Source: Parcubacteria group bacterium (GTDB taxonomy: Bacteria > Patescibacteriota > Minisyncoccia > Moranbacterales > UBA2206). From it: DNA of 64,000 nucleotides. The stretch's first letter is position 1; every line of letters begins with the position of its first letter. Below, piece by piece: positions 1 through 45,339 of the stretch. Both the position numbers and the translations under genes were made by a program. The DNA is taken from the NCBI GenBank assembly GCA_041664225.1, contig JBAYLE010000002.1, positions 3,541 to 67,540 on the forward strand, written 5' to 3'. The notes beneath the pieces are model-generated. The model did no database searches. It saw only the letters and a program-made list of their open reading frames with translations, and was not told the origin of the DNA.

Positions 1-259
1 TATTGGAGATGGTGCGAGATTTTCATTTGATAATATGATCATCACTTCTACGCACAGTCTGAAAGATTTTAAAAAAATTACAGCGAAACCGGTTTGGATT
101 GGAAAAAATGTATGGGTAACAAGCCGTTGCATCATTATGCCAGGCGTAAAAATAGGAGATAACTCCGTAATCAGCGCTGGTAGCATTGTTAGAGACGACA
201 TTCCGGCCAATTGCATTGCCGCAGGCAACCCGGCCAAGGTGGTCAAATATCTGGAATAA
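1..259 (+). CDS. C-terminal fragment of a hexapeptide-repeat (left-handed beta-helix) sugar O-acetyltransferase; the 5' end lies outside the window
   Basis: The open frame runs from the window edge. The translation ...WIGKNVWVTSRCIIMPGVKIGDNSVISAGSIV...AAGNPAKVV shows the [LIV]-G hexapeptide periodicity and the AGNPA(K/R) tail typical of Mac/LacA-type acetyltransferases. Confidence 0.6.
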   Translation, partial: IGDGARFSFDNMIITSTHSLKDFKKITAKPVWIGKNVWVTSRCIIMPGVKIGDNSVISAGSIVRDDIPANCIAAGNPAKVVKYLE

Positions 260-260
260 A

Positions 261-1130
261 ATGAAAATATCTAAAAGAATAATTTTTTATATCAAGATAA
301 CGCCTTTTAAAAAAATACCAAAGGAGGTGTTTTTTCGTTTTTTTCCCAACTTTGCCTGGAAGATTAACAAGTGGCAACTAAAAAAAATGATTCGCGAATT
401 GCAGAAAAAAAACAAGGAGTTCATCCTGGAAATAAGATTTGGGGGACTGGGCGACCATTTGATCTTCTCAGCTTTTCCAGAAATTTTTGCTAAAAAATTT
501 AATATTAAATTTTATTTGTCATCCCGCTCTGTTTTTGGTCATGAGGAAACAAGAAATATCGTATGGAGAGATAATCCGTATGTTAAATTTATCGATGCGC
601 CTGGAAAAGAATTGAGTTGCCCTAAAATAGATAAATACAAGAATTATAACGATGCTTTCGCAGACATTTTCGAGTTAGGAGAAGAAGAACAAAAGGTAAA
701 AATTTATTACAAGCCCAAAAAAATGGATGTAAACGAGGAAGATATTCTCTGTGATTTAACGTTTGGTCGAGCCGGAGGACATAATGGATACAAAGAAAAA
801 ATTTTTGAGGATAATGTAATAAAATATTTACGGAATAATTTTAGTGATAAAACTTTTATCTTATTGATGCCAGATGCTGAATATGCCGATAAATCATTGG
901 CGAATGCTGTTATGCGGAGCGGATTAAAATATAAAATTCAAACAGTAAAAAACATCCATCACTTAGCTGATTTTTTGTATTCCTACCCAACACGGATACT
1001 TTTGTATAGTGGTGCAGCAAGTCTGGCTGTAGCAATAAATTGTAAGGCAACTGTTCTTTGCAACAAACTTTCAAATCCTTATTTTCAATACGGCATTCAT
1101 AATTACGTGCGACTGGTAAAAAAAGATTAG
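261..1130 (+). CDS. Hypothetical protein, possibly a glycosyltransferase family 9 (heptosyltransferase-like) member
   Basis: The ORF-track frame is 186-1130, and the first ATG after the acetyltransferase stop is at 261 (MKISKRII...). The motif ILEIRFGGLGDHLIFSAFPE resembles the GT9 N-terminal (I/L)R-x3-LGD-x-(I/L)-x3-P signature. This is weak, unverified similarity. Confidence 0.45.
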   Translation: MKISKRIIFYIKITPFKKIPKEVFFRFFPNFAWKINKWQLKKMIRELQKKNKEFILEIRFGGLGDHLIFSAFPEIFAKKFNIKFYLSSRSVFGHEETRNIVWRDNPYVKFIDAPGKELSCPKIDKYKNYNDAFADIFELGEEEQKVKIYYKPKKMDVNEEDILCDLTFGRAGGHNGYKEKIFEDNVIKYLRNNFSDKTFILLMPDAEYADKSLANAVMRSGLKYKIQTVKNIHHLADFLYSYPTRILLYSGAASLAVAINCKATVLCNKLSNPYFQYGIHNYVRLVKKD

Positions 1131-1134
1131 ATAT

Positions 1135-2091
1135 ATGCCTGAAAAAGAATACAAAAACGCAATTTGTTCCCTATGCCGAAAAGAAGGCATCGAACTTTTT
1201 ATCGCTAAAGATAAAGTTCACAAAAAACCAGGGGTATTCCACGTCTTTCATTGTCAAAACTGTCAAGTCGATTTCATTGAATGCCCAGAAGATCTGACTG
1301 ACTATTACGATAACAATTATTTTTCTGACCTAATCAATGAAAAAAGTTTATTGTTCCGCATAAAATCGCATGTTATAGCTAATTTTTATGCGCCATCAGG
1401 ATTCATCAAGAAAAAAATATACGGTTTTCTCCTGGGCTTTATTGCCGCCTTACCCCAAGAAAAAGGGCGAATTTTGGATGTTGGTTGTGGCCCAGGTGAT
1501 ATCTTGTATTTGCTAAAAAAAGTAGGATTTGATGTGTATGGGCTGGATATTAGCCAATATGCGGTTGATGCAGCCCACAAAAACGGTCTAGAAAATGTTG
1601 CTTTAGGCATGGAAGACAAATTGGCCGAGTATTCCGATGAATTTTTTGATTGCATCCGCGGTTCACATGTTATTGAACATATGCCGGATCCAATCAAATT
1701 TCTAAATTTATGCCGGCGAAAATTAAAGAATGGTGGTTCGCTTATTCTTGCTACTCCAAATATCAACTCCTTTAATCGGGTTATTTTCGGCGAACACACT
1801 AAATGTTACCGCGACATCCCAAGACACATTATTTTGTTTTCAAACAAAGGGATTACTAAAATTTTGAAAAAAGCTGGGTTTGGGGATGCTAGGATAACTT
1901 ATAGAAATATGTTTAGTGATTTTTATGAGGGATTGTTTTGTTTTTTGGATGACAAATTTAAGATTTTAAATACGACTTTAGGAAAAAAGCTTTATAGAAA
2001 TATTTTTATCAATTTTATCTTTTTACCAATCGACTTTTTCGCTATAATGATTGGAGGTGGAGAAACAATGACGGTTAACATTAGAAAATAA
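1135..2091 (+). CDS. Class I SAM-dependent methyltransferase with an N-terminal zinc-ribbon (CxxC...CxxC)
   Basis: The N-terminus CSLC...CQNCQ forms a Cys4 ribbon. ILDVGCGPGDIL is SAM-binding motif I. A downstream acidic motif and ...CIRGSHVIEHM match the Methyltransf_11/12 pattern. Confidence 0.75.
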   Translation: MPEKEYKNAICSLCRKEGIELFIAKDKVHKKPGVFHVFHCQNCQVDFIECPEDLTDYYDNNYFSDLINEKSLLFRIKSHVIANFYAPSGFIKKKIYGFLLGFIAALPQEKGRILDVGCGPGDILYLLKKVGFDVYGLDISQYAVDAAHKNGLENVALGMEDKLAEYSDEFFDCIRGSHVIEHMPDPIKFLNLCRRKLKNGGSLILATPNINSFNRVIFGEHTKCYRDIPRHIILFSNKGITKILKKAGFGDARITYRNMFSDFYEGLFCFLDDKFKILNTTLGKKLYRNIFINFIFLPIDFFAIMIGGGETMTVNIRK

Positions 2092-2127: not shown

Positions 2128-4344
2128 ATGACGTATATTTATAAAAAATTATCACAGATTATTTCCATTATAGAAAAAAATATTTTTGTGATTACTTTGG
2201 TTTTAATTTCAATGGTTACCTATAACCATTTTTTGCTTAATTTTAATAATTTGTTATTTGACGATTTTATATTTCGCTTCAATGAATCGCTAAAAGAACT
2301 CCCTCTCTATCCCCAGAGCTGGCTATCTAACACCAATATGGGTGTTATACACGGCCAACCCTTTCTTTATCCTCTACATTTATTTTGGGGAATTTTATCC
2401 AGATTAGGAATTGGATGGAATATAATTGAAAGAATCTTTTTTTTCTGGCCGCTTATAATAATAGCTCCTCTTGCATCGTTTTTATTATTCAAAAAGCTTT
2501 TAAAATCCAATTTGGGCGCGGCTATTGGAAGTATTTTATTTACCTACAATTCTTACTTTATGGTAGCGCTTAACTATGGGTTCTTTTTTATTATTATTTC
2601 GCAAATCCTGGCTCCTCTTTTTTTGCTCTTGCTTTTTAAAACCCTAGAAAACAAAAGGTTTGATTATTCCGTGATTACTGGAATAATAGGATTTCTGATA
2701 ACCTCTTACGATTTCAGGACGTTCTATATTGTTGGTTGTATAGCATTATTATACGTAATTTTTTCTTTGTTTATCGACAAGGAAAGCAAGCTCTCAATCA
2801 AAAATATTTTTCTTTTTTTCATGCCCTTCATAATCGTTTTATTATTAAACAGTTTTTGGCTCATTAAATTTGTAAATGGCAGTTCTGATTACGCCTCTAT
2901 TTTAGACAGAGGTTTTCAGACAGTTTGGTCTCATAATTTAATCAACTCTTTATCTTTACACCATCCATATTATGGCGCGGGTGAAACTCTACATGGAGGC
3001 ACCTTTGATTCTTTGGAAAATGTCAGATTTTACTTTTGGATCATACCTATAGCGGCCCTTCTAGGAATTATTTTAAATAAAAGAAATGCAAAAATTCTCA
3101 TCATTGGGGTGATGACACTCATTTTTATTTTAATAGCTAAACAACATGCCCCACCCTTTACTGGTCTGTATGAATGGCTATATTACAACATCCCCGGATT
3201 TAATGCTTTTCGCGAAGCAGGTAAATTTTATTTTGCCATAGCTATGGGGTATTCAATTTTGGTTGGCTCGTTTATCAAGTGGATTTGGGAAAACTGGACA
3301 AAAATCACGAGTAAAAAGATTTATTCAAAATATTTAATAATATCAGCAATTACCATTATTCTGTTGCTAAATACTATTCATTTATACCAAGGAAAGGATC
3401 CGATTTTTACCAATCCCAAAGAAATACCTCCCGATTATCAGATATTTAAAGATTTCTTTCTAAAACAGCCTGATTATTCTGGTGTCCTTTGGATTCCTAA
3501 CGCCTCAAAACAATGGGCAGCTACATATACTAATAATCATCCTTCATTGGGGCTAGAAAGTATGACATTAGATTGGGGCTGGAAAGATTTTGTTTCGCAT
3601 AATTATAAAAATGGTAACTATCCTTATGGCGATGAAATCACAGCACCTCTCAAGCAATCATACGCTAACACATTACTGGACGTTTCTTCTGTGAAATATA
3701 TCGCAATTCAGTTGAATGACGGACCAAATCTGACAGAGTCTTTTATTGATTTAGCACGAATGTATGGCGAACGCAATTTTTTCATTAGCGAATTAGATGA
3801 TCTTCAGTATTTAAAGAAAATTGACATTGGGACGAAAGACCTTGTTGTTTATGAAAACAAAAATTTTAAGCCGCTTTTGTATACCACAAACGAAAAAGAG
3901 ACTATCTATGACAGTATTCGTTTTCAACCAGTAAACTATAAATTCATTGATTCTACGGAATACAATATTTCTATTGAAAATATATCTCGCCCTATATATT
4001 TAAATTTTGCCCAAACTTATCATCCCGAATGGAAAATTAGAGCAGGGGACTTCATCTGGATAAAGACTCTAATGGGCGAAAAATATTTTTTACCAGACGA
4101 AAATCACTATAAGAATACGGCTAATTTGAATTCTTTTTATATCGATCCCAAAGAAACTTGCCAGTCAAGCGACTCTTGCCATCAAAATCCCGACGGCAGT
4201 TTTAATATTGAGTTGACCCTCTATTTCAAGCCCCAATCATATTTCTATCTTGGCTTGATTATTTCAGGCCTAATCCTCGCCGGACTCTTGGGCTATCTGG
4301 GATGGGACTTTGCGAAGCGTCACAGAAATAATAATCTTAAATAA
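2128..4344 (+). CDS. Large polytopic membrane protein (738 aa); putative GT-C-type glycosyltransferase or glycan polymerase
   Basis: The N-terminal 430 aa carry about 10 or more hydrophobic helices. A DD motif (LLFDDFIF) sits after the first TM. A C-terminal soluble domain of about 300 aa ends in a terminal TM anchor. This is the architecture of GT-C/YfhO-like enzymes. Confidence 0.55.
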   Translation: MTYIYKKLSQIISIIEKNIFVITLVLISMVTYNHFLLNFNNLLFDDFIFRFNESLKELPLYPQSWLSNTNMGVIHGQPFLYPLHLFWGILSRLGIGWNIIERIFFFWPLIIIAPLASFLLFKKLLKSNLGAAIGSILFTYNSYFMVALNYGFFFIIISQILAPLFLLLLFKTLENKRFDYSVITGIIGFLITSYDFRTFYIVGCIALLYVIFSLFIDKESKLSIKNIFLFFMPFIIVLLLNSFWLIKFVNGSSDYASILDRGFQTVWSHNLINSLSLHHPYYGAGETLHGGTFDSLENVRFYFWIIPIAALLGIILNKRNAKILIIGVMTLIFILIAKQHAPPFTGLYEWLYYNIPGFNAFREAGKFYFAIAMGYSILVGSFIKWIWENWTKITSKKIYSKYLIISAITIILLLNTIHLYQGKDPIFTNPKEIPPDYQIFKDFFLKQPDYSGVLWIPNASKQWAATYTNNHPSLGLESMTLDWGWKDFVSHNYKNGNYPYGDEITAPLKQSYANTLLDVSSVKYIAIQLNDGPNLTESFIDLARMYGERNFFISELDDLQYLKKIDIGTKDLVVYENKNFKPLLYTTNEKETIYDSIRFQPVNYKFIDSTEYNISIENISRPIYLNFAQTYHPEWKIRAGDFIWIKTLMGEKYFLPDENHYKNTANLNSFYIDPKETCQSSDSCHQNPDGSFNIELTLYFKPQSYFYLGLIISGLILAGLLGYLGWDFAKRHRNNNLK

Positions 4345-4438
4345 AAGTATTTTGGTTATTCATAGCAGCAAGGGAGTTTAATTGTAACAAAATGTTACAA
4401 TTGGAGTGCTAAAATGTTACAATAAAATTAAAGAAACT

Positions 4439-6055
4439 ATGGAAAAATATCTGAAAAAATATTATCGCCTTTTTTTTCTGGCTGTCGCCGTTCTGCTTTT
4501 GTATCCGACTTTGCAAAGGGGATATATTTTTCTTCTTGACTGGATGGTGGAACCGAATATTGCCTTTTCCGATATCAATCTTCTTTCTGATTCCATCGGG
4601 TGGATAACTTACAAATTTCTGGCTATTGTTTTTTCATTCGCCGTTTTTCAAAAAATTCTTCTCTTCGCCATTGTATATTTTTTGGGTCTGGCGGGTTTTC
4701 GGCTGGCAAAACGAACTAGGAATATCTATGCCCAATATTTCGCGGGACTCTTTTTCATTTTTAACCCGTTCATCTACGCACGATTAGTGGAGCAGATCAA
4801 TGTCATCGTTGGCAGCGTTTTGTTTTTATGGTTTTTGGTATATTTTCTGGAATATCTGGAAGAAGATGTTTTAAAAAAACTTGTCTGGTCTGCTATTTTA
4901 GCAGCGCTGGCTATTTCCTTTTTCCCGCATTGCGCTTTTTTAGTTGCTGCAACTTTTCTTGTCCTAGTTATCTCTAATTTTATCAGCAAAAAAGATTGGA
5001 AATTAATTTTTAAAACAGCCTTGATATTCGGGGCAATAGTTATATCTTTAAACAGTAATTGGCTTTTTTCTTTTTCCCAAAACCGAGGAGATTTGGCTGT
5101 GGTGGAAAATTTTTCCCAAGCTGATTGGAAATCATTCGAAACAAGCTCTATCGGAGGCGATTCGGTTTACACGACAGTCCTAGCCCTGCAGGGGTATTGG
5201 GGAGAATATCAAGATCGATTTGTTTCCATTAGGGAAAACCCGCTTTGGAGCCCCGCTTTTCTCTTGATTTTTGCCCTGTCAGTCTTCGGCGCAATCAAAT
5301 TGTGGAAAAAAGATCCTCATGCGAAACCGCTGATATTCCTGTTTTTTATCGCTTATATTCTGGCTATCGGCATATCGTCGCCGATTACTAAGCCTCTTTC
5401 CGTCTTTCTTTATAATTATCTGCCTTTTTATACCGGTTTACGTGAGCCGCAAAAATGGGTGATTGTTTTAGTTTTCGTCTATGCATATTTGGGCGGTTGG
5501 GGCATCAAATATCTCTTAGAAACTAAAAAATTTAAGGATTATCGCACAGAAATAGGAATCTTCTGCGCAATTCTCCCGATTATTTTTTCTTTTTCAGCCA
5601 TCCAGGGCATGCGCGAGCATTTCACGCCGCAAGAGTTTCCCGTAGAGTGGCAAGGGGCCAAAAATTTTCTCAAGGAAAATCCGACTGATGGTAAAATTTT
5701 GTTTTTACCCTGGCATTCGTATATGGAATTTAGTTTTGCCGGCAAAAATATTATAAACCCAGCACAGTCTTTTTTTGGGAAAAATATTATTGTGGGCAAC
5801 AACACCGAATTTGGGCCGGTCTATTCACACTATTCTGATCCGCGAACCCTGGCCATTGAAAAATATATGCCCAGAAAAAATAATCCTTCGGAAAAAATAA
5901 ACTATGCTGATTTTATTTCTGATATGGAAAAATTCAAAATTCAAAAAATAATTTTGGCCAAAGACGAAGATTGGCAAAAATATGCCTGGCTTGATACTAT
6001 ACAAACAACCAAGGTTTTGGAAAATAATAAGCTAAAAATATACGACCTCCAATGA
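4439..6055 (+). CDS. Polytopic membrane protein (hypothetical); probably glycosylation-related
   Basis: The ORF-track frame is 4406-6055 from a GTG. The ATG at 4439 (MEKYLKKYY...) is the more likely start. It has more than 10 predicted TM helices and its stop overlaps the next gene (ATGA). Confidence 0.55.
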   Translation: MEKYLKKYYRLFFLAVAVLLLYPTLQRGYIFLLDWMVEPNIAFSDINLLSDSIGWITYKFLAIVFSFAVFQKILLFAIVYFLGLAGFRLAKRTRNIYAQYFAGLFFIFNPFIYARLVEQINVIVGSVLFLWFLVYFLEYLEEDVLKKLVWSAILAALAISFFPHCAFLVAATFLVLVISNFISKKDWKLIFKTALIFGAIVISLNSNWLFSFSQNRGDLAVVENFSQADWKSFETSSIGGDSVYTTVLALQGYWGEYQDRFVSIRENPLWSPAFLLIFALSVFGAIKLWKKDPHAKPLIFLFFIAYILAIGISSPITKPLSVFLYNYLPFYTGLREPQKWVIVLVFVYAYLGGWGIKYLLETKKFKDYRTEIGIFCAILPIIFSFSAIQGMREHFTPQEFPVEWQGAKNFLKENPTDGKILFLPWHSYMEFSFAGKNIINPAQSFFGKNIIVGNNTEFGPVYSHYSDPRTLAIEKYMPRKNNPSEKINYADFISDMEKFKIQKIILAKDEDWQKYAWLDTIQTTKVLENNKLKIYDLQ

Positions 6056-6465
6056 AAGAAATCAATCTTGAAATTAAACTGCCTGCTTTTTGGGACACAT
6101 ACCTAGCCGGAAAGATAGCTAGAATCATTGTTTCGCTTGCCTGGCTATTTTTCACTGCCTACATCGGGACTGAACATCTTTTCACATTTATAGAAATGCT
6201 CGTTTTGGCGTATCTTGGCCTTTCTATAATCTGGAGACTTTCCAGCCGCGTCTCCGCCGTCATTGCTTTATTATTTCTTATTGCTGAGCCATTTTTACTC
6301 TATTTTAAAAATGACGCGCTGGCGGAGACTTTCGCCGTATATGCCTTCTATTTTCTAGTTATAACCGTCTTCCAAGAGGTTTTATGGCTTAAACATGAGC
6401 AAAAAACCTTGCCCGAACGCCCTGTGGATAACTCACCTGGACACCCCAAAAGAAAGATTGTATAA
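6052..6465 (+). CDS. Small integral membrane protein (137 aa), translationally coupled to the upstream gene
   Basis: ATGA overlap with 4439-6055. Four hydrophobic segments are visible. Confidence 0.45.
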   Translation: MKEINLEIKLPAFWDTYLAGKIARIIVSLAWLFFTAYIGTEHLFTFIEMLVLAYLGLSIIWRLSSRVSAVIALLFLIAEPFLLYFKNDALAETFAVYAFYFLVITVFQEVLWLKHEQKTLPERPVDNSPGHPKRKIV

Positions 6466-6547
6466 TAAAGATAATATTAACAAAATGTTTGGTCGATTGC
6501 ATTTTGCAACTAGCTAGTTGAGTTTAATTTGTCAAAAACAAAAAATA

Positions 6548-6907
6548 ATGAAAAGAATTCTAACATTATCCCTCTTGTTTGCTGTAAGCATCGCTATGGT
6601 CGCAGGTGTGGCTCTGGCCAATTATGGCGACAAAAACAGCCTTTCCGGTTATGTAAAAGAAAAGGGAACCTTAGCCGGCATTAAGGGTGCTAAAGTCAAA
6701 ATCTATACTCAGGGCGGCACCAAAAAGGGTTCTGACACGACCAATATAAAAGGAAAGTATTCGATCAAGAAATTGACCGAGAAGAAATATGTAGTTCGAG
6801 TGACAGCAAGCGGATGGCATGATCCGAAGAATGTCCAGAAGAACAAGATTTCCAGCACCGTCAAAGTGGATGGAAGCAAAAATAGAAACTTCTATTTTGT
6901 AAAATAA
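6548..6907 (+). CDS. Small secreted protein with a carboxypeptidase-regulatory-like / Ig-like beta-sandwich signature
   Basis: Start chosen at MKRILTLSLLFAVSIAMVAGVALA (signal peptide), and the ORF-track 6518 start is an upstream extension. GYVKEKGTLAGIKGAKVKIYTQGGTK...KYSIKKL...KYVVRVTASGW matches a CarboxypepD_reg-like fold. A rho-independent terminator follows. Confidence 0.5.
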   Translation: MKRILTLSLLFAVSIAMVAGVALANYGDKNSLSGYVKEKGTLAGIKGAKVKIYTQGGTKKGSDTTNIKGKYSIKKLTEKKYVVRVTASGWHDPKNVQKNKISSTVKVDGSKNRNFYFVK

Positions 6908-6926
6908 TTTTCTTATCCAATCCTTA

Positions 6927-6955
6927 CAAAAAACGTCCGCGCGGACGTTTTTTGA
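6927..6955 (+). terminator. Rho-independent terminator
   Basis: AAAAAACGTCCGC/GCGGACGTTTTTT is a perfect 9-bp GC-rich hairpin followed by a T-run. Confidence 0.8.
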
Positions 6956-6992
6956 TATTGACCAAAAAAATAAAAAGGGTCATAATAAGAAC

Positions 6993-7802: not shown

Positions 7803-7819
7803 TAAATAAAAAAACACAT

Positions 7820-34784: not shown

Positions 34785-34798
34785 GTACGCTGTTATCG

Positions 34799-34850
34799 AA
34801 GGGATGGTTAGCTCAAGCTAGTTCTATGAGCGCCATCCCTTTTTTTATTT
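34799..34850 (+). terminator. Terminator of the GC-rich gene
   Basis: AGGGATGG...CCATCCCT, an 8-bp stem with a long loop, followed by TTTTTTTATTTTT. Confidence 0.55.
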
Positions 34851-34902
34851 TTATAAATTTGATATAATACAAATATAATGAACGTGCTAAAAACATTACG
34901 AA

Positions 34903-35643: not shown

Positions 35644-35668
35644 ATTTAATTATATAATATAGAAAAAC

Positions 35669-36559: not shown

Positions 36560-36569
36560 ATTTAAAAAT

Positions 36570-37139: not shown

Positions 37140-37151
37140 TATACCTGTTCT

Positions 37152-38855: not shown

Positions 38856-40040
38856 ATGAAAATTGGAATCAACGCGTCGTTTGCCAGAAAGCCGGCAAGT
38901 GGCACCGGGCAGGTAACGATTAATTTTTTAAAAAAATTAATCGAGTTAGAAAGTCAAAAGTCAAAAGTCAAAAGTGACCTTGAGTTTATTTTGTATTTGG
39001 AAGAAGATCTGCCAAGAGATTTCAAATTGCCGAAAAATTTCACGAAACATATTTTCTTGCCGCCCTGGAAACGCGATGATTTGCTGCGGAAAATTTGGTG
39101 GGAAAAATATTTACTGCCAAGAAAAATCCGAAAGGATAATCTGGATGTCTTTTTCAGTTTGTATCAGTCGGCAACCATTTTGCCTAATAAACTGAAGCAT
39201 ATTATGCTAGTCCATGATATTATCCCTAAATTATTCCCAGAATATCTTAACAATTCTCGCAAGAAAAAATATTGGAGTTTGGTTGAGGAAGCTATCCGAA
39301 AAGCGGACGGGATCATTGCCAATTCTCGGCGCACCGAAAAAGATCTAATCCGACATCTAGGCATCAACCCGGCAAAAATTACCGTAAATTATTTGGACGT
39401 TGATGAAATATACAAGAAAAAAGTTTCGTCTGAGAAAAACAAAAAGGTTTTAAAAAAATATAAATTAAAGCCGGGATACATTTACAACGGCGGAGGATTG
39501 GAAGTTAGAAAAAATGCGGAGGGAGTTATTCGCGCGTATAAATATTTATTAGATAGAAATAAAATTTTGCATTCTATCCATGAAATGCCGCAACTTATAA
39601 TCTCTGGGAGATTGCTGCCGCAGCTCGCACCCCTTGTCGTTGACGTGGAAAAATTAATCAAAGAATTAAACCTCACCAAACACGTCAGAATTCTGGGGTT
39701 TGTGCCACAGGAAAATTTACCGGCTATTTATGCCAACGCTCTGATGTTTATTTATCCATCGCGCTATGAGGGCTTCGGCATCCCGCCTTTGGAAGCCATG
39801 AATCAAGGCACGCCCGTAATTATTGCCAAAACCTCATCTTTGCCAGAGGTGGGTAGTGATTCCGTGCTGTATTGCAACCCCGAAGATCACAAAGACATTG
39901 CTATGGTCATGAAAAATGTAATGCTTAATAAAAATCTGCGTGCTACACTTTCCGAAAGAGGTAAGGAGAGAGCTAAGATTTTTTCTTGGAAAAAGTTTAC
40001 GGAAAAGTTTTTGAATATCATCAATGAACGAAATTTTTAA
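38856..40040 (+). CDS. GT4-family glycosyltransferase
   Basis: The C-terminal YANALMFIYPSRYEGFGIPPLEAMNQGTPVI motif is present. It contains an in-frame (AAAAGTC)x3 repeat encoding SQKSKVKS. Confidence 0.85.
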   Translation: MKIGINASFARKPASGTGQVTINFLKKLIELESQKSKVKSDLEFILYLEEDLPRDFKLPKNFTKHIFLPPWKRDDLLRKIWWEKYLLPRKIRKDNLDVFFSLYQSATILPNKLKHIMLVHDIIPKLFPEYLNNSRKKKYWSLVEEAIRKADGIIANSRRTEKDLIRHLGINPAKITVNYLDVDEIYKKKVSSEKNKKVLKKYKLKPGYIYNGGGLEVRKNAEGVIRAYKYLLDRNKILHSIHEMPQLIISGRLLPQLAPLVVDVEKLIKELNLTKHVRILGFVPQENLPAIYANALMFIYPSRYEGFGIPPLEAMNQGTPVIIAKTSSLPEVGSDSVLYCNPEDHKDIAMVMKNVMLNKNLRATLSERGKERAKIFSWKKFTEKFLNIINERNF

Positions 40041-41607
40041 CCAGTTTAATAAACCCCGTTTTTATTTGCTCTTCGCCAACATTCTTTTGGTTTTCTTTTT
40101 GATTTTGCTTTCAAATCTGGGGATTTTGCCGATTAAAAAATCTGGAGATTTTATTTTTTTTGCACTTGTCTATTTAGCTTTTGCGCTTTATCGTCCGGGT
40201 TGGAGTTTTTTGTTTCTCATTGGAACCATCGCGCTGGAAAACATTAGTTTGGCGCCTCAGGAGATTGGAATTTCGGTCCGGCCATATCAATTCATCGGGG
40301 GACTGACTATTTTGGCCGTACTGATTAAGTTGGCCGTTGGCAGACTGGGTTTCAGGCTTCCAAAATTCAACCGCTTTGATTTATTATTTCTGATTTTTGC
40401 CTTGGCAGGTTTTATCAGCACGATTGGAGCACTGGACAAGGGTGCCGCCCTGAAACAATCCATTATTGCATCATCCTTTATAGTCTTATATTTTTTGGCC
40501 AGGATATTTATCCAAGAGATCGCCGATCTCAAAAGAATCACGCCCTTTTTTTTGAGTTCTTCCATAATCGTCGTATTTTATGGCCTCTGGCAGAATTTTA
40601 GATTTATCCAAGGCTCCAACCCATTCGAAGTTATGCCCGGCCGGCCGAACGCCACTTTCACGGAGCCGGATTGGCTCGGAATTTTTTTGGTGATATTATT
40701 GGCAATCTTTTATACCCTTATCTATGACCTGAGAAGTTTTAAAAATATCGACGACCGCGAGATCAAAATTAAAAATTATAAACTGATTTATCTGCACGCA
40801 TGCCTAGTTTTGATTTTTTCCTTGATCATTATTAGTGTCTCTCGTTCCGCTTGGCTGGGCGCGTTTATTGTGACTTTTGCTTATTTATTTATTATCTGGA
40901 CGAATTTGAAAATTCATCCCAAAGAATGGCAATGGAGATTCGCTTTTTGGAACAAAGTTGGGATCCTAAGTTCTTTGCTTGCCGCCATTGCGTTGGTTTA
41001 TATTTTTCACCTGACAAATTTTCAATTATTCAACCGCGCCCAAAGCACTGCGTCAGGACTCCAGAAAATTACAATTTCTTGTACGCAAAACATAAATCTC
41101 CCTGAAAAAATAAGCAATGTTTCTGAATTAGTCCCGTATGGATGCCGACACATCAATTTGGAAGAAATAGAAACGGAAAAAGGAAAAGGCAATTTTGTCG
41201 GCGAAATTTTCCGTGATGATCCTAACATCAATATCCGTGGACGAATTTACCAAAGGTCTTGGGAACAAATCAAAACGCATCTGATCTTAGGAATCGGATG
41301 GGGCAACATTGGAAAAATTTTAGGAATTGACGAAGCCGGAAACAGTCTGAATTCCAGCAACATTTTTTTGGAAGTTTGGCTGGGCACGGGCTTGCTGGGG
41401 ATAATTACATTTGCCTTGATTTGGATTTGGACTATAATCAAATCAATCAGGCTGTTCGTTTTTGAAAATAATTCCGGGGGAAAGCTCTTGGGATTGTTTT
41501 TGTTTTTAGGAAGCATTGCGCTTCTGGTTCCCAATCTATTCAACGCGGGAATATTTCTAGGCGCAATGTGGTTGTTCTTTGGTTTTATGAATATCGGAAA
41601 AAAATAA
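40024..41607 (+). CDS. O-antigen ligase / O-antigen polymerase-like (Wzy_C domain) membrane protein
   Basis: It has about 12 TM helices. ...IISVSRSAWLGAFIV sits in the large periplasmic loop region characteristic of Wzy_C/WaaL proteins. Confidence 0.65.
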   Translation: MNEIFNQFNKPRFYLLFANILLVFFLILLSNLGILPIKKSGDFIFFALVYLAFALYRPGWSFLFLIGTIALENISLAPQEIGISVRPYQFIGGLTILAVLIKLAVGRLGFRLPKFNRFDLLFLIFALAGFISTIGALDKGAALKQSIIASSFIVLYFLARIFIQEIADLKRITPFFLSSSIIVVFYGLWQNFRFIQGSNPFEVMPGRPNATFTEPDWLGIFLVILLAIFYTLIYDLRSFKNIDDREIKIKNYKLIYLHACLVLIFSLIIISVSRSAWLGAFIVTFAYLFIIWTNLKIHPKEWQWRFAFWNKVGILSSLLAAIALVYIFHLTNFQLFNRAQSTASGLQKITISCTQNINLPEKISNVSELVPYGCRHINLEEIETEKGKGNFVGEIFRDDPNINIRGRIYQRSWEQIKTHLILGIGWGNIGKILGIDEAGNSLNSSNIFLEVWLGTGLLGIITFALIWIWTIIKSIRLFVFENNSGGKLLGLFLFLGSIALLVPNLFNAGIFLGAMWLFFGFMNIGKK

Positions 41608-41626
41608 AGAAAAAGGAGAGAAAGAC

Positions 41627-41872
41627 ATGTCATGTCAAGGAGAAAAACACAAAAGTTGTCTTATCTGCGCATTAGGTAAAGGCATAACCGGATCGGAAGC
41701 AGCTTCTCTAATCGAACAAGAAATCGGACCAGCTCTCGCAAAAAAAGCGGGCGTGACAGAAGAAACTGGACGCGCGTCTTTCTTCAGCTCATTGAAGTCA
41801 AGCGGATCCACGCTTCAACACAACCTGAGTAAGATTGAGGGACTGGTTTGCTTTATCCCTCCCCACTGGTAA
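41627..41872 (+). CDS. Small Cys-containing hypothetical protein (81 aa) with its own RBS and terminator
   Basis: An SD (AAAAGGAGAG) precedes it. The sequence is MSCQGEKHKSCLIC... (C3, C11, C14, C74) with a Ser/Thr-rich C-terminal half. Its GC content is higher than its neighbours. Confidence 0.5.
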   Translation: MSCQGEKHKSCLICALGKGITGSEAASLIEQEIGPALAKKAGVTEETGRASFFSSLKSSGSTLQHNLSKIEGLVCFIPPHW

Positions 41873-41909
41873 AAAATAACCAGGAAGGGAAGCGTGATAC
41901 ATTTCTCAA

Positions 41910-41940
41910 GCGGGAGCCTTCGGACTCCCTCTTTTTTTAT
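41910..41940 (+). terminator. Rho-independent terminator (UUCG-type loop)
   Basis: GGGAG-CCTTCGGA-CTCCC followed by TCTTTTTTTATT. Confidence 0.7.
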
Positions 41941-41964
41941 TCTTTTTTATGCTATTATAGATTT

Positions 41965-43149
41965 ATGAAAATCGGCATTGATATCAGAAATATAGGCAAA
42001 CATAGAACTGGCGATGAAGTGGTCTTTTTTAATTTAACTAAAAGCTTAGCTGACCTGGATCGCCAGAATAATTATTTTTTATGCACCGATATAACCGACC
42101 CGATCGTATTAGCTGATATAGCAGACCGATTAGGACTTCAAGACAAGCCTAATTTTGAAATTGTTTCCTTAAAAACCAAAAATAGATACACTTGGAATTT
42201 CTGGGCGCTGCCGCGTTATCTCCGCCAAAATCCAGTAGACATTTACCTGACTCAATATATCACGCCTTTTTTTGTGCCGAAGAAAATCAAAATTGCCACC
42301 GTTGTGCATGATGTGTCATTCAAGGTTTACCGTAAATTTATAAGATTCTCTGATTTATTTTTTTTGGATATTTTGATCCCGCTATCTTTCAAACGAGCTG
42401 ACAAAATCATCGGGGTTTCAAAATTCACTGCTGACGAAATCATCAAGTACTACAAAACAGCTCCCGAAAAAGTCAGTTGGATCCATAACGCAGTCGGTGA
42501 CAATTTCAAAGAAGCTGTATCTCCACAAGAAATTGATGCAGTTAGAAAAAAATATAATTTACCGGAAAAATTTATTTTGTATATCGGCACACTGCAACCG
42601 CGAAAAAATCTACCCGCACTGATTACGGCCTATTCCACCCTTGCCGAAGATACCCGCGCTAAAATCAAGCTGGTATTGGCAGGCGGCAAGGGGCATAATT
42701 ATGATCCCGGGATCGAAAAGTCCATCGCAGAATACTCTTTAGAAAAGGATGTATTTTTGCCGGGATTTATTGACGAAAAGGACAAGCCGGCGATTTTTAT
42801 GGCTTGTCATGTCTTCTGTAATCCCTCTTTTTATGAGGGTTTTGGTATAACCATTCTAGAGGCCATGACACTGGGAATTCCTGTTTTAGCCTCAATGATT
42901 CCGCCCCATCAAGAAGTTGCCGAAAATAGCGTTTCATATTTTAATCCGGAAGATACGGAGGAATTAACAAGATTGCTCGCCTCTGTCATCGCCGATGAAA
43001 ATTTGCGAAATGAACTGGCACACAAAGAGTTGATTCAGACCAAAAAATTTTCTTGGGAAACGACCTCGCAAAAATTGCTTGAGCTGTTCAACAATTTGAA
43101 TAATCCCGAAAAAAAACGAGCATTTTTTGGCCATAATCAGAGCGATTGA
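41965..43149 (+). CDS. GT4-family glycosyltransferase
   Basis: The likely start is MKIGIDIRNIGKH, and the ORF-track start at 41848 is an upstream extension through the terminator. The C-terminal EGFGITILEAMTLGIPVLAS motif is present. Confidence 0.85.
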   Translation: MKIGIDIRNIGKHRTGDEVVFFNLTKSLADLDRQNNYFLCTDITDPIVLADIADRLGLQDKPNFEIVSLKTKNRYTWNFWALPRYLRQNPVDIYLTQYITPFFVPKKIKIATVVHDVSFKVYRKFIRFSDLFFLDILIPLSFKRADKIIGVSKFTADEIIKYYKTAPEKVSWIHNAVGDNFKEAVSPQEIDAVRKKYNLPEKFILYIGTLQPRKNLPALITAYSTLAEDTRAKIKLVLAGGKGHNYDPGIEKSIAEYSLEKDVFLPGFIDEKDKPAIFMACHVFCNPSFYEGFGITILEAMTLGIPVLASMIPPHQEVAENSVSYFNPEDTEELTRLLASVIADENLRNELAHKELIQTKKFSWETTSQKLLELFNNLNNPEKKRAFFGHNQSD

Positions 43150-43240
43150 CAATCGGCATAAATAGGATAAAATATATACTATGTTGTTGAAATAGGAAAT
43201 TTTCACAATTTTTAACTCATTAATTACGATCAAAAAGAAC

Positions 43241-44455
43241 ATGGCTTATTTAAGAAGTAACGCAAACCCCGCTCAAAACAGTCAAACGACTGGCAAGACT
43301 AAATCAAAATTTTATACAAAAAAGTGGTTTAAAATAATATTAGTTGTTGTTATTTTATTTGTTTTGGTGGGCGGGACTTTCGCCTGGAAAGCGGGTAATA
43401 TTCTGAGCAAAATTTCCAATGGCAGCCTGATAAACAGCTTGGCGCATTCTTTGCCGGGCACAAATGACCAATTGAAGGGCGAGGCAGATGGTCGGATAAA
43501 TATTTTGCTCTTGGGCATGCGTGGAGCAAATTTACCGGGCGGAGGAACTTTGGCTGATACGATAATGGTAGCCAGCATCGCGCCCAAGGAAAATAAAATT
43601 GCTATGATTTCAATTCCGCGCGACCTTTATGTCACTACTCCGGGCACGGAAAGCAAAAACAAGATAAACGCAGTACACGCCTACGGCGAACAGAAGGGCG
43701 CCGGGCAAGGAATCGGGGATATGAAGACCATTGTCGATCAAGTTATCGGACTGCCGATTCATTACGCGGTCAGTATTGACTTCGCCGGCTTCAAACAATT
43801 GGTAGACGCGATTGGCGGAGTTGACATAACTCTCGCTGGCCCCTTTAATGAATCTGTCCAATTTAATGAACCTCATGTTTGCGACTCATTCTTTACCCAG
43901 CCGACCGGGAAATTTGAATATAAATATCACAGTTATTCAACCAGCCGCAAAATTGTTGCCCAATATCCCTTATGCACGGCACCAGCCAACGCTTTGGAAT
44001 GTGGCGGAAATTTTAACTTGCCAGCTGGGAAACAAACGCTCAGTGGCGAGCAAGCCTTGTGTTACGCCAGATCAAGGGCCACCTCCAGTGATTTTGAACG
44101 CGCCAAGAGACAACAGCAAATCATCCAATTGGTCAAAGCGAAGCTTTTAAGCGCCGGGACACTGACTGATTTTGGAAAGTTGAATGGGATTTTAAATAGT
44201 CTTGGTAATAATGTCAGAACCGACATGCAGCCTTGGGAAATGAAAAAACTTTACGATTTATACATAAGCATGCAAGACCCGCAAACCTACCAAAGAGTGC
44301 TGGAAAATTCCGAGGAGGGCTTGCTCTATACCCCCGTAGAAACTAAAGAAACCGGGTATATTTTGCTTCCGCGCGGGGACAATTACGACCAGATTCATAA
44401 CGTCGCACAGAACATCTTTACTATTGCGCCTCAGTCAGATATAGCTCCAAAATAA
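43241..44455 (+). CDS. LytR-CpsA-Psr (LCP) family cell-wall glycopolymer phosphotransferase
   Basis: It has an N-terminal TM helix. The LCP core is INILLLGMRGANLPGGGTLADTIMVASI...ISIPRDLYV. Confidence 0.85.
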   Translation: MAYLRSNANPAQNSQTTGKTKSKFYTKKWFKIILVVVILFVLVGGTFAWKAGNILSKISNGSLINSLAHSLPGTNDQLKGEADGRINILLLGMRGANLPGGGTLADTIMVASIAPKENKIAMISIPRDLYVTTPGTESKNKINAVHAYGEQKGAGQGIGDMKTIVDQVIGLPIHYAVSIDFAGFKQLVDAIGGVDITLAGPFNESVQFNEPHVCDSFFTQPTGKFEYKYHSYSTSRKIVAQYPLCTAPANALECGGNFNLPAGKQTLSGEQALCYARSRATSSDFERAKRQQQIIQLVKAKLLSAGTLTDFGKLNGILNSLGNNVRTDMQPWEMKKLYDLYISMQDPQTYQRVLENSEEGLLYTPVETKETGYILLPRGDNYDQIHNVAQNIFTIAPQSDIAPK

Positions 44456-44485
44456 TTACGCTACCAGACCTCGGACTTTAAAAAA

Positions 44486-44518
44486 TGCGGCATGATCTTT
44501 CGATGGTCATGCCGCATA
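44486..44518 (+). terminator. Perfect 11-bp inverted repeat hairpin between LCP and GT2 genes (terminator/attenuator-like)
   Basis: ATGCGGCATGA-tctttcgatgg-TCATGCCGCAT followed by a weak U-tract (ATTATTAAAA). Confidence 0.4.
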
Positions 44519-44529
44519 TTATTAAAACA

Positions 44530-45339
44530 ATGGAACTTTCAATAATCATTACGAGTTATAAAAATCCAGAGTTGCTTCAAGTCTGCATCGACTCAATCAA
44601 AAAAAATTACGCCAGTGATGACTGCGAAATAATTGTAGCCGACAGCGCGACCGAGGAAAAAACCGAAATAATGATGCGGGAGGATTATCCGGGAATAAAA
44701 TTCATTGCCTCAAGAAAAAATATTGGTTTCAGCGGCACGGTTAATAATGGATTTGCGGTTGCGCGGGGGAGATATCTGCTAATTTTGAACGGCGATATAA
44801 TTGTTAAAAAAGATGCGATCAAAAAACTTCTGGATTATATCAGCAATCATCCCGATGTTGGAATTGTCAGTCCGCAGCTTCTAAATTTTAATGAGACATT
44901 CCAACCATCAACATTTCGTTTTTATACGCCGCTCACGATTGTTTTTCGCCGGACTTTCCTTGGAAAATTTTCTTTTGCCAAGAAGCATCTGGATAGGTTC
45001 TTGATGAAAGACTTTGATCATAAAAGCATCCGTAATGTTGATTGGGTGATGGGTTCATCGCTTATGACAAGCCGGCAGGCCGTTGAAAAGGTTGGCGTGA
45101 TGGACCACCAATTCAAGTTATACTTTGAGGATACCGATTGGTGCCGCAGATTTTGGGAAAAAGGATATAGGGTGGTATACTTTCCGGAGGCGCAAATGTA
45201 CCATTATCATGGCCGGGGATCGGCCAGCGGAAGCGTTTTCCGAGCCTTGATCTCGAATAAGCTGACTTGGATGCATATCGCCAGCGCGATAAAATATTTT
45301 ATAAAATACGCCGGCAAACCCTTGCCTGAACATAATTAA
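44530..45339 (+). CDS. GT2-family (GT-A) glycosyltransferase
   Basis: Start at MELSIIITSYKNPELL. ...IVADSATEE...NGDIIV is a DxD motif. The ORF-track 44485 start runs through the hairpin. Confidence 0.8.
   Translation: MELSIIITSYKNPELLQVCIDSIKKNYASDDCEIIVADSATEEKTEIMMREDYPGIKFIASRKNIGFSGTVNNGFAVARGRYLLILNGDIIVKKDAIKKLLDYISNHPDVGIVSPQLLNFNETFQPSTFRFYTPLTIVFRRTFLGKFSFAKKHLDRFLMKDFDHKSIRNVDWVMGSSLMTSRQAVEKVGVMDHQFKLYFEDTDWCRRFWEKGYRVVYFPEAQMYHYHGRGSASGSVFRALISNKLTWMHIASAIKYFIKYAGKPLPEHN

Follow-up and report, generated by a model that had tools for sequence, protein, structure and literature searches.

A conserved modular locus with eight GT-C-fold membrane proteins, very probably for envelope glycan assembly, in a Moranbacteria-lineage Patescibacterium

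Introduction

In systems of the CsbB/GtcA/YfhO type, a polyprenyl-phosphate-linked monosaccharide is made by a family 2 glycosyltransferase (GT2), and its sugar is transferred outside the membrane by a polytopic glycosyltransferase of the GT-C fold. In the mycobacterial systems for lipomannan, lipoarabinomannan and arabinogalactan (PimA/PimB, GT4; Ppm1/PpgS, GT2; PimE, Mpt, Emb, Aft and Rv3779, GT-Cs), a glycolipid primer made by GT4 enzymes is flipped and extended by many GT-Cs. The surface chemistry of bacteria of the candidate phyla radiation (CPR; Patescibacteria) is essentially uncharted, yet attachment of these bacteria to other cells, and exchange with them, take place by means of it. 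We describe here a stretch of 64,000 nucleotides (hereafter "the window") from a Parcubacteria group bacterium (assembly GCA_041664225.1, contig JBAYLE010000002.1, positions 3,541 to 67,540), in which positions 1-45339 very probably constitute an envelope glycan locus using GT-C enzymes dependent on polyprenyl-phosphate sugars. All coordinates below are those of the window.

Genome papers on CPR bacteria contain passing remarks on multiple dolichyl- or polyprenyl-phosphate glycosyltransferases and on a possible pathway resembling that for phosphatidylinositol mannosides (PMC4736985, PMC6031116). Our literature search on GT-C enzymes or mannosyltransferases in Patescibacteria or Moranbacteria retrieved passing remarks only and no dedicated study.

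Results

Eight GT-C-fold membrane proteins

A six-frame list of open reading frames (ORFs), scanned with Pfam and NCBIfam, gave about 36 closely packed genes in positions 1-45339. Eight of them encode large polytopic proteins with 7-15 transmembrane (TM) segments each in a Kyte-Doolittle scan (two of the reading frames, opening at 4406 and 17614, have their ATG at 4439 and 17683). These eight, and a small partner of the last of them, are:

2128..4344, + strand: g2128, GT-C-fold protein of the AftD/STT3/YfhO-like class (AlphaFold2 model and Foldseek)
4406..6055, + strand: g4406, GT-C-fold protein, MmpA/AftD-N-like, paralogue of g2128 (hhalign to the g2128 family)
14505..16142, + strand: g14505, ArnT/PMT_2-type GT-C (PMT_2 48.6 bits, PMT 35.2 bits)
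17614-19791, 19772-21679 and 21669-23585, + strand: T1, T2 and T3, tandem overlapping GT-C paralogues (PMT_2/PMT above cut-off)
23572..25122, + strand: g23572, divergent PMT_2-type GT-C, last gene of the tandem operon (PMT_2 25.8 bits, cut-off 26.1)
27426..29408, - strand: g27426, GT-C-fold protein with DUF6541 and DUF1616 (Pfam, 58.8 and 36.7 bits)
27048..27419, - strand: 123-residue single-TM extracytoplasmic protein, adjoining the DUF6541 GT-C gene

All eight are GT-C-fold proteins and would be catalytically active. The original prediction, made from the sequence alone, had counted at least eight GT-C-like proteins, and the eight listed held: five were recognised by the Pfam PMT or PMT_2 models (one of them 0.3 bit under the cut-off), two by AlphaFold2 models compared with Foldseek, and one as a profile homologue. 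Profile-profile comparison (hhalign) also joined the GT-C families into a network (E 3e-36, 6e-11, 5.6e-7 and 1.6e-6). An acidic motif follows the relevant first helix in all eight, in a loop that the K/R-rich N-termini would place on the extracytoplasmic side. The presence of two synthase-type GT2 genes in this locus and in related loci is an indirect sign that the sugar donors may be linked to polyprenyl phosphate.

The g2128 protein had no Pfam or NCBIfam match and belongs to a rare family, with 18 homologues among 5.8e9 proteins; a distant homologue carries PF09586 (YfhO), and the NCBI entry for g2128 itself, named hypothetical protein, comes from the metagenome-assembled genome (MAG) of a "Parcubacteria group bacterium". 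In g2128 the last TM helix is preceded by a large, beta-rich domain on the extracytoplasmic side, and the AlphaFold2 model (pLDDT 82.2, pTM 0.85) was closest in Foldseek to AftD (6w98; E 5e-8, TMq 0.51), and then to STT3, PglB, AglB, DPY19 and AftA. Residue D46, after TM1, is nearly invariant, being kept in at least 90% of the sequences. The GC content of positions 1-4000, which carry g2128, is 0.32-0.35, versus about 0.40 in the rest of the window, and this low-GC edge of the locus may be more recently acquired or fast-evolving.

The g4406 protein aligned with the g2128 family over its full length (hhalign 99.9%, E 3e-36). Its own family contains 1529 cluster representatives at E<=1e-3, members of which sporadically match GT-C_AftD, DUF6541, GtrII and PMT_2, and D45 is invariant in 43 family members; among ten relatives looked up, one had a taxon name, Candidatus Gracilibacteria. 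The refuting condition set originally counted YfhO among families other than glycosyltransferases; YfhO is a GT-C enzyme, so a YfhO/AftD/MmpA-like assignment of g2128 and g4406 leaves the GT-C reading unrefuted. The NCBIfam MmpA model (NF053599) matched residues 25-492 of g4406 with 88.2 bits (E 4.5e-25), and membership of this family was rejected because the score lies far below the cut-off of 210. For MmpA no transferase activity has been demonstrated, and a role as membrane anchor or scaffold has been suggested (PMC8698533).

The g14505 protein carries the acidic motif GKDQARD and reached 19.7 bits against the ArnT model (cut-off 567). The three tandem paralogues T1-T3 (the T-family) are 38-41% identical in pairwise comparisons (E 1e-94 to 1e-135), and each ends in a Cys-containing C-terminal soluble domain; D47-E48 (in ADEH), AWGYGGYEA, C553 and C560 are invariant in the family. 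The PMT matches in the locus (32-35 bits, cut-off 22.7) are partial, covering profile positions 64-235 or so of 245, and the Pfam scan gave no PMT_4TMC or MIR match. Members of the T-family are named "glycosyltransferase family 39 protein" or "ArnT-like" by NCBI. An insertion of about 85 residues (residues ~505-590) distinguishes T1 from T2 and T3; it lies after the last helix shared by all three, ahead of the C-terminal soluble domain, and contains two extra predicted TM helices. The fourth tandem protein, g23572, misses the PMT_2 cut-off by 0.3 bit, has an ADEF motif after TM1 and, as a profile of 32 relatives, matched the g14505 family (hhalign 97.1%, E 6e-11). The four tandem genes are linked by overlaps of 11-20 nucleotides, and a hairpin with a T-run (25140-25164) marks the end of the operon.

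For g27426, a model built by AlphaFold2 from a 32-sequence alignment (pLDDT 81.7, pTM 0.86) matched STT3 (E 7e-7), ArnT (5f15; E 1.7e-5), AftD and Pmt4 in Foldseek; like the model of g2128, it is a helical bundle. The invariant residues are T142-D143-x-G-H-H, D185, E190 and H191, and all the taxon-bearing source names of its 629 homologues are Patescibacteria, Parcubacteria or Moranbacteria. The gene for the 123-residue protein, which had no significant family in Pfam scans, adjoins the DUF6541 gene in 14/14 related loci. The C-terminal soluble domains of g23572 and g27426 align profile-to-profile (84.5%, E 7e-6, 154 columns), which suggests that these otherwise distant GT-Cs share an outside domain.

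Single-sequence phmmer searches of the PDB with four of the GT-Cs gave no usable match, and PDB profile searches with the g4406-family and T-family alignments found no solved relative; the link to known GT-C structures came from predicted-structure comparison alone.

Conservation of the locus in related genomes

The organism is a Patescibacterium of the Moranbacteria lineage. Scanning of a genome collection with the three-paralogue alignment identified 87 relatives in 77 loci, most of them assigned by their labels to Patescibacteria, Candidatus Moranbacteria or Moraniibacteriota; relying on two peptide patterns specific to the family, the scan cannot show absence in other taxa. The ultra-small-genome source lineage predicted originally agrees with these relatives, almost all of which are Patescibacteria and mostly Candidatus Moranbacteria. 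The claim that such a locus is a hallmark of episymbiotic bacteria is overstated: the tandem family was nearly confined to Patescibacteria, but in a scan biased by its patterns, and an episymbiotic life of this lineage is putative. A sizeable minority of relatives labelled "uncultured Bdellovibrionales" carry the same Moranbacteria-type modules, and these labels, found on MAGs at loci L019, L036, L038-L044, L049, L052-L054, L057, L059, L061, L067, L070, L077, L079 and L080, look like taxonomic errors in co-assembly records.

The window proteins were mapped onto all ORFs of the related loci, and three recurrent modules were found. The first (M1) consists of GT2pp-A, UGDH-A, GT4a and a flippase-like protein, followed by one to several GT-Cs and Wzx. 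The second (M2) contains a T-family GT-C, the 123-residue protein, the DUF6541 GT-C, GT4b and GT2pp-B (and UGDH-B), and the third (M3) contains GT4c, Wzy_C, GT4d and LCP. The corresponding genes of the window, other than the GT-C genes and their small partner, are:

9870..10805, + strand: GT2pp-A (g9870), polyprenyl-phosphate glycosyltransferase of the ArnC/GtrB/PgfS type (Glycos_transf_2 111.9 bits)
10976..12343, + strand: UGDH-A, UDP-glucose 6-dehydrogenase-like (three UDPG_MGDP_dh domains)
12417..13589, + strand: GT4a, GT-B glycosyltransferase (Glycos_transf_1 146 bits)
13582..14508, + strand: MprF-flippase-like membrane protein, LPG_synthase_TM/UPF0104/PplT (PF03706 121.5 bits)
25150..26628, - strand: Wzx/MOP-family flippase with about 13 TM segments (Polysacc_synt 74.8, Polysacc_synt_3 58, MurJ 43.4 bits)
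29398..30513, - strand: GT4b glycosyltransferase, overlapping the DUF6541 gene by 11 nucleotides (Glycos_transf_1 90.7 bits)
30595..31575, - strand: GT2pp-B (g30595), polyprenyl-phosphate glycosyltransferase of the AglJ/PpgS type (Glycos_transf_2 62.1 bits)
31933..33387, - strand: UGDH-B, UDP-N-acetylhexosamine-type 6-dehydrogenase (NDP-sugar dehydrogenase subfamily 387 bits, cut-off 189.8)
38856..45339, + strand: wall-polymer module with GT4c, a Wzy_C polymerase/ligase-like protein, GT4d, an LCP glycopolymer-peptidoglycan ligase and a GT2 (Pfam)

Up to 6 GT-C copies were present per related locus (loci <=22 kb), and the order GT4c-WzyC-GT4d(-LCP) was kept in L008, L017, L065 and L068. T1-T3 occur in the same order, with 1:1:1 orthology, in four genomes (L004-L007), where scores ranged from 600 to 820 bits on the diagonal versus 274 to 385 off it (357 bits on the diagonal for the T3 ORF of L007, truncated where that locus ends). 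Diagonal scores so far above the off-diagonal ones in four genomes indicate that the triplication is old and that each copy has been separately maintained. Recent tandem amplification was rejected on the same grounds, the copies being only 38-41% identical and orthologous across genomes, and the three enzymes probably differ in acceptor or linkage specificity. Chance is implausible as a source of this arrangement, given the E values among T1-T3 and the recurrence of modules in 77 loci.

Whether the locus is conserved or a variable island had been put forward as a comparison to make: modules recur in the 77 related loci with a variable number of paralogues, and the locus is a conserved modular feature of the lineage, not a strain-specific island, with the possible exception of its first 4 kb. 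The exact T3 protein was also found on contigs of three independent metagenome samples (L001-L003; SRR18595301, JGI 3300037810 and SRR6484324), which matched window positions 11669-33585 with 100% identity and no indels over 17-22 kb. One and the same strain is present in several data sets, and these three independent assemblies revealed no strain or phase-variable differences over the 17-22 kb.

Putative donor synthases and a probable supply of uronic acids

Both GT2 enzymes originally described as polyprenyl-phosphate-sugar synthases have the features of that type, namely a DXD motif, two C-terminal TM helices and full-length alignments to ArnC, PgfS or AglJ. GT2pp-A (DGD92-94; TM helices 235-253 and 268-286) aligned over its full length with ArnC (167 bits, cut-off 529) and PgfS (157 bits, cut-off 500). 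GT2pp-B (DAD99-101; TM helices 248-266 and 283-301) aligned in the same way with AglJ (100.7 bits, cut-off 325), and matched PpgS with 63 bits (cut-off 370). UGDH-A matched TuaD (440 bits) and the NDP-sugar dehydrogenase subfamily (427.6 bits, cut-off 189.8), and UGDH-B is closest to UDP-ManNAc dehydrogenase (290 and 247 bits) and TviB (224 bits). GT2pp-A adjoins UGDH-A in 10/20 of the related loci that have GT2pp-A, and GT2pp-B lies beside UGDH-B in the window, L016 and L036. A 76-residue ORF between GT2pp-B and UGDH-B (31582-31812, - strand) was called by a gene finder on the identical contigs.

Among the window ORFs scanned, none was identified as a mannose-activation gene, and the sugar-nucleotide genes point to uronic acids rather than mannose. 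This signal comes from the coupling of UDP-sugar 6-dehydrogenases to both GT2pp enzymes, together with the GT-C-linked glycoside hydrolase described below.

A GT4-flippase-like pair and a GH28 glycoside hydrolase

The MprF-flippase-like protein (hereafter PplT-like) exceeded the cut-off of the TIGR00374 flippase-like model (74.3 bits, cut-off 43.2). Its gene overlaps that of GT4a by 8 nucleotides and g14505 by 4 nucleotides. In the 24 related loci in which it was found, it adjoins GT4a in 19 and a GT-C gene in 19, and in 7 related loci GT4a and the PplT-like protein are fused into a single ORF of 693-698 residues. Fusions of GT-B and PplT domains have been catalogued (bioRxiv 10.1101/2022.03.11.483950), and the experimentally studied pair formed by GpgS (GT4) and GpgF (UPF0104) makes, and probably flips, N-acetylglucosaminyl-phosphatidylglycerol (PMC12713373). 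The coupling of GT4a, the PplT-like protein and GT-Cs, the fusions and the GpgS/GpgF precedent, taken together, suggest that M1 starts from a glycolipid moved outward across the membrane. The GlcN_PG_synth model matched other GT4s weakly (34-41 of 480) and was absent from the best 25 of 43 GT4a matches.

One gene within this part of the locus lies on the opposite strand:

16151..17560, - strand: GH28 glycoside hydrolase, alpha-D-galacturonidase-like, secreted or anchored (Glyco_hydro_28 100.5 bits, cut-off 22.9)

The GH28 protein has an N-terminal TM or signal helix and matched the model of the alpha-D-galacturonidase BT4155 over its full length with 384 bits (cut-off 800). Its catalytic motifs are variants, NSD253-255, DD276-277 (SDD), GH310-311 (GHS) and RAK342-344, the equivalence of which to NTD, DD, GHG and RIK was read from the sequence by eye, with no structure alignment. 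A hydrolase dedicated to the polymer being made is a frequent component of loci for polysaccharide biosynthesis, and the GH28 gene adjoins a GT-C gene in 14/14 of the related loci that have it. The enzyme points weakly to a polymer containing galacturonic acid.

A proposed wall-polymer route

The GT4 genes of the locus start at 12417, 29398, 38856 and 41848, and the GT2 gene at 44485. The Polysacc_synt match of Wzx (74.8 bits) and the Wzy_C (59.8 bits) and LytR_cpsA_psr (118.3 bits) matches all exceed their cut-offs; the LCP protein also matched the LCP domain model (99.5 bits, cut-off 62.3) and TagU (121 bits). A further glycosyltransferase lies 14 kb outside the locus:

59706..60437, - strand: GT26 of the WecG/TagA/TarA type (Glyco_tran_WecG 118 bits)

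It matched the wecG_tagA_cpsF superfamily (107 bits, cut-off 69) and TarA (118 bits). M3, Wzx, LCP and this TagA-like GT26 fit a conventional lipid-linked polymer ligated to peptidoglycan.

Other genes of the locus and of the window

The genes fall into four transcription blocks, on the + strand from 186 to 16142, on the - strand for the single gene at 16151-17560, on the + strand from 17614 to 25122, and on the - strand from 33387 to 25150 with the + strand from 33675 to 45339 and onward after it, with overlaps of 4-20 nucleotides between many adjoining genes. tRNA and Rfam scans of the window gave no match. The remaining genes of the locus are:

186..1130, + strand: 314-residue soluble protein, first gene of the operon, ending 4 nucleotides 5' of the methyltransferase gene
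1135..2091, + strand: SAM-dependent methyltransferase with one C-terminal TM helix, residues 290-308 (Methyltransf_23 83.5 bits)
6052..6465, + strand: g6052, 137-residue protein with 4 TM helices, overlapping g4406 by 4 nucleotides
6518..9652, + strand: three secreted or membrane-anchored proteins of 129 (CarboxypepD_reg-like), 269 and 621 residues (Pfam)
33675..38060, + strand: sugar-nucleotide tailoring and transport operon, with a GFO/IDH/MocA oxidoreductase, a methyltransferase, an SDR epimerase/dehydratase, a NUDIX hydrolase and an EamA/DMT transporter (Pfam)

The 314-residue protein had no Pfam or NCBIfam match; its segment RFGGLGDHLIFSAFPE may be akin to the motif at the N-terminus of GT-B enzymes of the GT9 (heptosyltransferase-like) type. 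The small protein g6052, which gave no GtrA or other Pfam match even at E<5, is present in the GT2pp-A neighbourhood of L016, L023 and L069 and, from its size, its topology and its translational coupling to g4406, is a candidate small flippase for lipid-linked sugars. All three proteins of the 6518..9652 block have an N-terminal TM or signal helix, and the largest has weak discoidin/DUF642-like matches in its C-terminal part. The order of the block is kept beside GT2pp-A in L023. When checked as possible Ser/Thr-rich acceptors, the three proteins were found not to be Ser/Thr-rich (10-15.5%). The operon at 33675..38060 is preceded by a 12/12 sigma-70 consensus (33553-33581), and its SDR epimerase has the motifs GxxGxxG and Y123xxxK127. 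The EamA protein g37152 had no ArnE/F match.

Most of the original inventory was recovered, the four GT4s, one GT2, two NDP-sugar dehydrogenases, epimerase, GFO oxidoreductase, two methyltransferases, Wzy_C protein and LCP enzyme all being present. The GT26 assigned to positions 1-45339 is the one at 59706-60437, outside that range and the only one in the window, and no acetyltransferase was detected in any ORF of 1-45339. Of the three flippase-type transporters, one is Wzx/MOP, another is the MprF-flippase-like PplT protein and the third is the generic EamA/DMT protein, and this item does not hold as worded. The GH28 gene, the NUDIX gene, the block of three secreted proteins, the 4-TM mini-protein and the 123-residue partner of the DUF6541 protein had been overlooked.

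A 419-bp stretch with no listed ORF (26629-27047) separates the 123-residue gene from the start of wzx, both genes being on the - strand; an 11/12 promoter-like site within it (26675-26702, + strand) has no obvious gene 3' of it. Beyond the locus, a PD-(D/E)XK nuclease (Cas4-like, with a weak sub-threshold DUF7376 match; 52257-53399, - strand) lies directly 5' of a DUF2062 membrane protein (51799-52257, - strand); no CRISPR array was noticed in the window, in which no repeat search was run. A NifU-like gene (55145-55537) and an M23 peptidase ORF (55482-56102) overlap by 56 nucleotides as listed, and the peptidase probably starts at a later codon. A 448-residue protein (56316-57662, - strand) combines a long coiled-coil-like region (weak Golgin match) with a C-terminal Peptidase_C39-like domain, an unusual architecture, and the 180-residue ORF at 60469-61011 is a LigT 2'-5' RNA ligase-type phosphoesterase, not an acetyltransferase.

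Discussion

The locus most likely serves as an assembly line, outside the cytoplasm, for a glycan anchored to lipid or to the wall. That it serves envelope glycosylation with an unusual density of GT-Cs, and with two synthase-type GT2s beside them, is common to our analysis and the original prediction. We consider it reasonably probable that the locus is a composite, two-compartment factory for a cell-envelope glycan, combining a wall route with an outer GT-C stage. At the cytoplasmic face, the GT4 and GT2 enzymes and the TagA-like GT26 would build lipid-linked units, Wzx would export them, the Wzy_C protein would polymerise or ligate them, and the LCP enzyme would join the polymer to peptidoglycan; for this stage the enzyme families are established and their order in a pathway is our reconstruction. 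GT2pp-A and GT2pp-B, each genetically coupled to a UDP-sugar 6-dehydrogenase, would charge polyprenyl phosphate with single sugars, the likely ones being a hexuronic acid derived from UDP-glucose and an N-acetylhexosamine-uronic acid. After flipping, the eight GT-Cs would use these polyprenyl-phosphate-sugar donors outside the membrane, a stage for which the protein architecture is established and the chemistry is proposed.

For M1, we tentatively propose a lipoglycan primed by a glycolipid, a model that is possible rather than probable. GT4a would glycosylate a membrane lipid, its MprF-type flippase-like partner would move the glycolipid outward, the coupled GT-Cs (g14505, T1-T3 and g23572) would extend or decorate it according to the logic by which PimA precedes PimE/Mpt/Emb, and the secreted GH28 galacturonidase-like enzyme would trim or remodel the product. 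A more specific version is improbable in our estimation: a scavenged membrane lipid would be converted by the fused or coupled GT4-flippase pair into a glycolipid, on which at least five dedicated GT-Cs using polyprenyl-phosphate-uronic acids would build a galacturonan-like polyuronide lipoglycan wholly outside the membrane, with trimming by GH28, in a lipoarabinomannan-style arrangement that was independently invented. Moranbacteria-type CPR bacteria are not known to make their own lipids.

Several observations weigh against this interpretation of the locus. The roles given to the proteins beyond fold and family are drawn from gene context, and the genomes behind the adjacency counts are phylogenetically related and were sampled around a single gene family, so that the counts are not independent. 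The scores of the two GT2pp enzymes, the two dehydrogenases and GH28 all fall well short of NCBIfam equivalog cut-offs, and those of the GT2pp enzymes therefore do not fix their sugar specificity. No clear UDP-glucuronic acid 4-epimerase was identified, the only candidate being an SDR of ambiguous specificity; no GtrA or ArnE/F homologue for the flipping of polyprenyl-phosphate sugars was detected; and there was no initiating phosphoglycosyltransferase (WecA/MraY-like or WbaP-like) among the window ORFs scanned, although its gene may lie elsewhere in the genome. GT4a is not a GpgS equivalog, and Pfam scans revealed no deacetylase of the Gpg or Hex systems in the locus. The nearest named family of g4406 is MmpA, which has no demonstrated transferase activity (PMC8698533).

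Three other explanations bear on the same evidence. The GT-Cs might simply add single side-chain sugars to a wall- or lipoteichoic-acid-like polymer produced by Wzx/Wzy/LCP, repeating the logic of CsbB-GtcA-YfhO, GacI-GacL and GtrABC eight times. The GT2s with two C-terminal TM helices accompanied by GT-C architecture, the assignment of g2128 and g4406 to a YfhO/AftD-like class (with PF09586 YfhO in a distant homologue), the 4-TM mini-protein translationally coupled to g4406, and the LCP ligase and Wzx of the same locus would all be accounted for, but eight decorating enzymes are unusually many for two donors, a GT4-PplT fusion beside GT-Cs is not known from such decoration systems, and the 4-TM protein has no detectable similarity to GtrA. 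Decoration as the whole function is somewhat unlikely, but this explanation overlaps with the assembly line proposed above, and sequence cannot separate the two. Another explanation would be the transfer, by the PMT/PMT_2 GT-Cs, of polyprenyl-phosphate sugars to Ser/Thr residues of secreted, pilus or S-layer proteins, on the models of actinobacterial Pmt and Streptococcus mutans PgfS/PgfM; the Wzy_C protein could then be a PglL-type O-oligosaccharyltransferase, as Wzy_C domains occur also in PglL/PilO enzymes of that activity. The T-family exceeds the PMT cut-off, has a D-E motif in loop 1 and bears the NCBI name GT39, GT2pp-A aligns over its full length with PgfS (157 bits), and three secreted proteins are encoded within the locus. 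These PMT matches are, however, partial and no better than those to PMT_2/ArnT-type models, PMT_4TMC, MIR and a mannose-activation gene are lacking in the window, and the secreted proteins are not rich in Ser/Thr, as given above. The conserved lipid-flippase-like, Wzx, LCP and GH28 partners fit polymer or lipid acceptors, and we judge protein O-glycosylation to be unlikely. The protein glycosylation and mannosylation envisaged originally were not upheld: the T-family lacks the PMT_4TMC and MIR domains, the GT4-flippase-like, Wzx and LCP partners favour lipid- or wall-anchored glycans, and the dehydrogenases and GH28 point to uronic acids in a window with no mannose-activation gene.

It is also conceivable, but quite improbable, that some of the GT-C-fold proteins, above all g2128 and g4406, are scaffolds or lipid-delivery factors like MmpA, with no transferase activity, and that GH28 is an unrelated, pectin-degrading enzyme of nutrition. 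Characterised GH28 enzymes do act on plant pectins. CPR bacteria have often been described as users of external sugar polymers (PMC4736985), and, among named families, g4406 is matched best by that of MmpA, for trehalose-lipid delivery (88 bits, E 4.5e-25), a family with no recognised catalytic function and a proposed role as anchor or scaffold (PMC8698533). Against this, the Asp of the first outside loop never varies in 43 g4406 members and hardly varies among the relatives of g2128, which is the pattern that catalytic GT-Cs should show; the score of g4406 falls far short of the MmpA cut-off (210); and an enzyme of nutrition unrelated to the locus would not readily have its gene beside a GT-C gene in 14/14 loci. 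The extracytoplasmic assembly of a lipid- or wall-anchored glycan remains our preferred reading.

The enzyme classes involved are all known, the locus is ordinary in kind, and the T-family is already publicly labelled GT39 or ArnT-like. What is new is the GT-C fold of three families with no functional Pfam model (g2128, g4406 and DUF6541/DUF1616), the conserved module structure, the GT4-flippase fusion beside GT-C arrays, the GH28 linkage and the uronic-acid signal. The GT-C fold now covers a rare family of 18 members, an MmpA/AftD-related family of about 1,500 clusters and the DUF6541/DUF1616 proteins, and the locus provides a concrete, conserved parts list, with two putative lipid-linked sugar donors, eight transferases that would face outward, a putative glycolipid synthase-flippase pair that is fused in some relatives, and a linked galacturonidase-like hydrolase. 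Should a galacturonan-like lipoglycan prove to be the product, it would define the cell surface with which Moranbacteria-type CPR bacteria meet their hosts.

Comparison with known systems

The Wzx/Wzy systems for wall polysaccharide and teichoic acid with LCP enzymes (TagA/TarA, TagU/LytR) share Wzx, Wzy_C, LCP, GT4/GT2 and TagA-like GT26 proteins with the window, which, unlike them, has no initiating phosphoglycosyltransferase, chain-length regulator or ABC exporter. The locus resembles CsbB/GtcA/YfhO (teichoic acids), GtrA/GtrB/GtrC (O-antigen) and GacI/GacK/GacL in combining a GT2 with two C-terminal TM helices and a GT-C, and g2128 and g4406 have the YfhO/AftD-like layout, with a big outside domain before the last helix; it differs in having eight GT-Cs for two synthases and no detectable flippase of the GtrA family. 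With ArnC/ArnE-F/ArnT, which place 4-amino-4-deoxy-L-arabinose on lipid A, it has in common a UDP-glucose dehydrogenase that would feed a donor derived from a uronic acid, an ArnC-like GT2 (167 bits) and PMT_2/ArnT-type GT-Cs, whereas the ArnC and ArnT equivalog cut-offs are missed by far and ArnA, ArnB and ArnD are absent. The lack of an aminotransferase, formyltransferase and deformylase in the locus led us to reject membership of the Arn pathway, and CPR bacteria are not known to have lipid A. A similar likeness holds for Rhizobium RgtE/RgtA-D, which place galacturonic acid on lipopolysaccharide, the donor suggested indirectly here by GH28.

PMT (GT39) enzymes share the partial, above-cut-off PMT match and the loop-1 D-E motif, and differ in the PMT_4TMC/MIR domains and mannose supply genes missing from the window and in the Cys-containing C-terminal domain with AWGYGGYEA that characterises the T-family. 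MmpA (NCgl2761/Rv0226c) of the Corynebacterineae is, like g4406, related to the N-terminal GT-C module of AftD (PMC8698533), whereas the locus contains no TmaT or MtrP partner and no mycolate pathway. The pairing of a GT4 with a UPF0104/LPG_synthase_TM protein is shared with GpgS-GpgD-GpgF of Pseudomonas aeruginosa, HexSDF of Clostridioides difficile and MprF; the locus differs in lacking a deacetylase, in having a GT4a that does not qualify as a GpgS equivalog, and in the setting of the pair inside a GT-C array, an arrangement undescribed for Gpg, Hex and MprF.

The organism has a Gram-positive-type CPR envelope with no mycomembrane, and none of the enzymes of the locus is an orthologue, at the level of sequence, of a Pim, Mpt, Emb or Aft enzyme. 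The likeness to the mycobacterial systems lies in AftD being the best structural match of g2128, in the match of GT2pp-B to PpgS and in a comparable density of GT-Cs. The partner of the GT4 here is an MprF-type flippase-like protein, and uronic acids are the probable sugars. Were the lipoglycan model correct, the locus would constitute a second independent case of the mycobacterial strategy, in which a large glycan is built outside the membrane by many GT-Cs.

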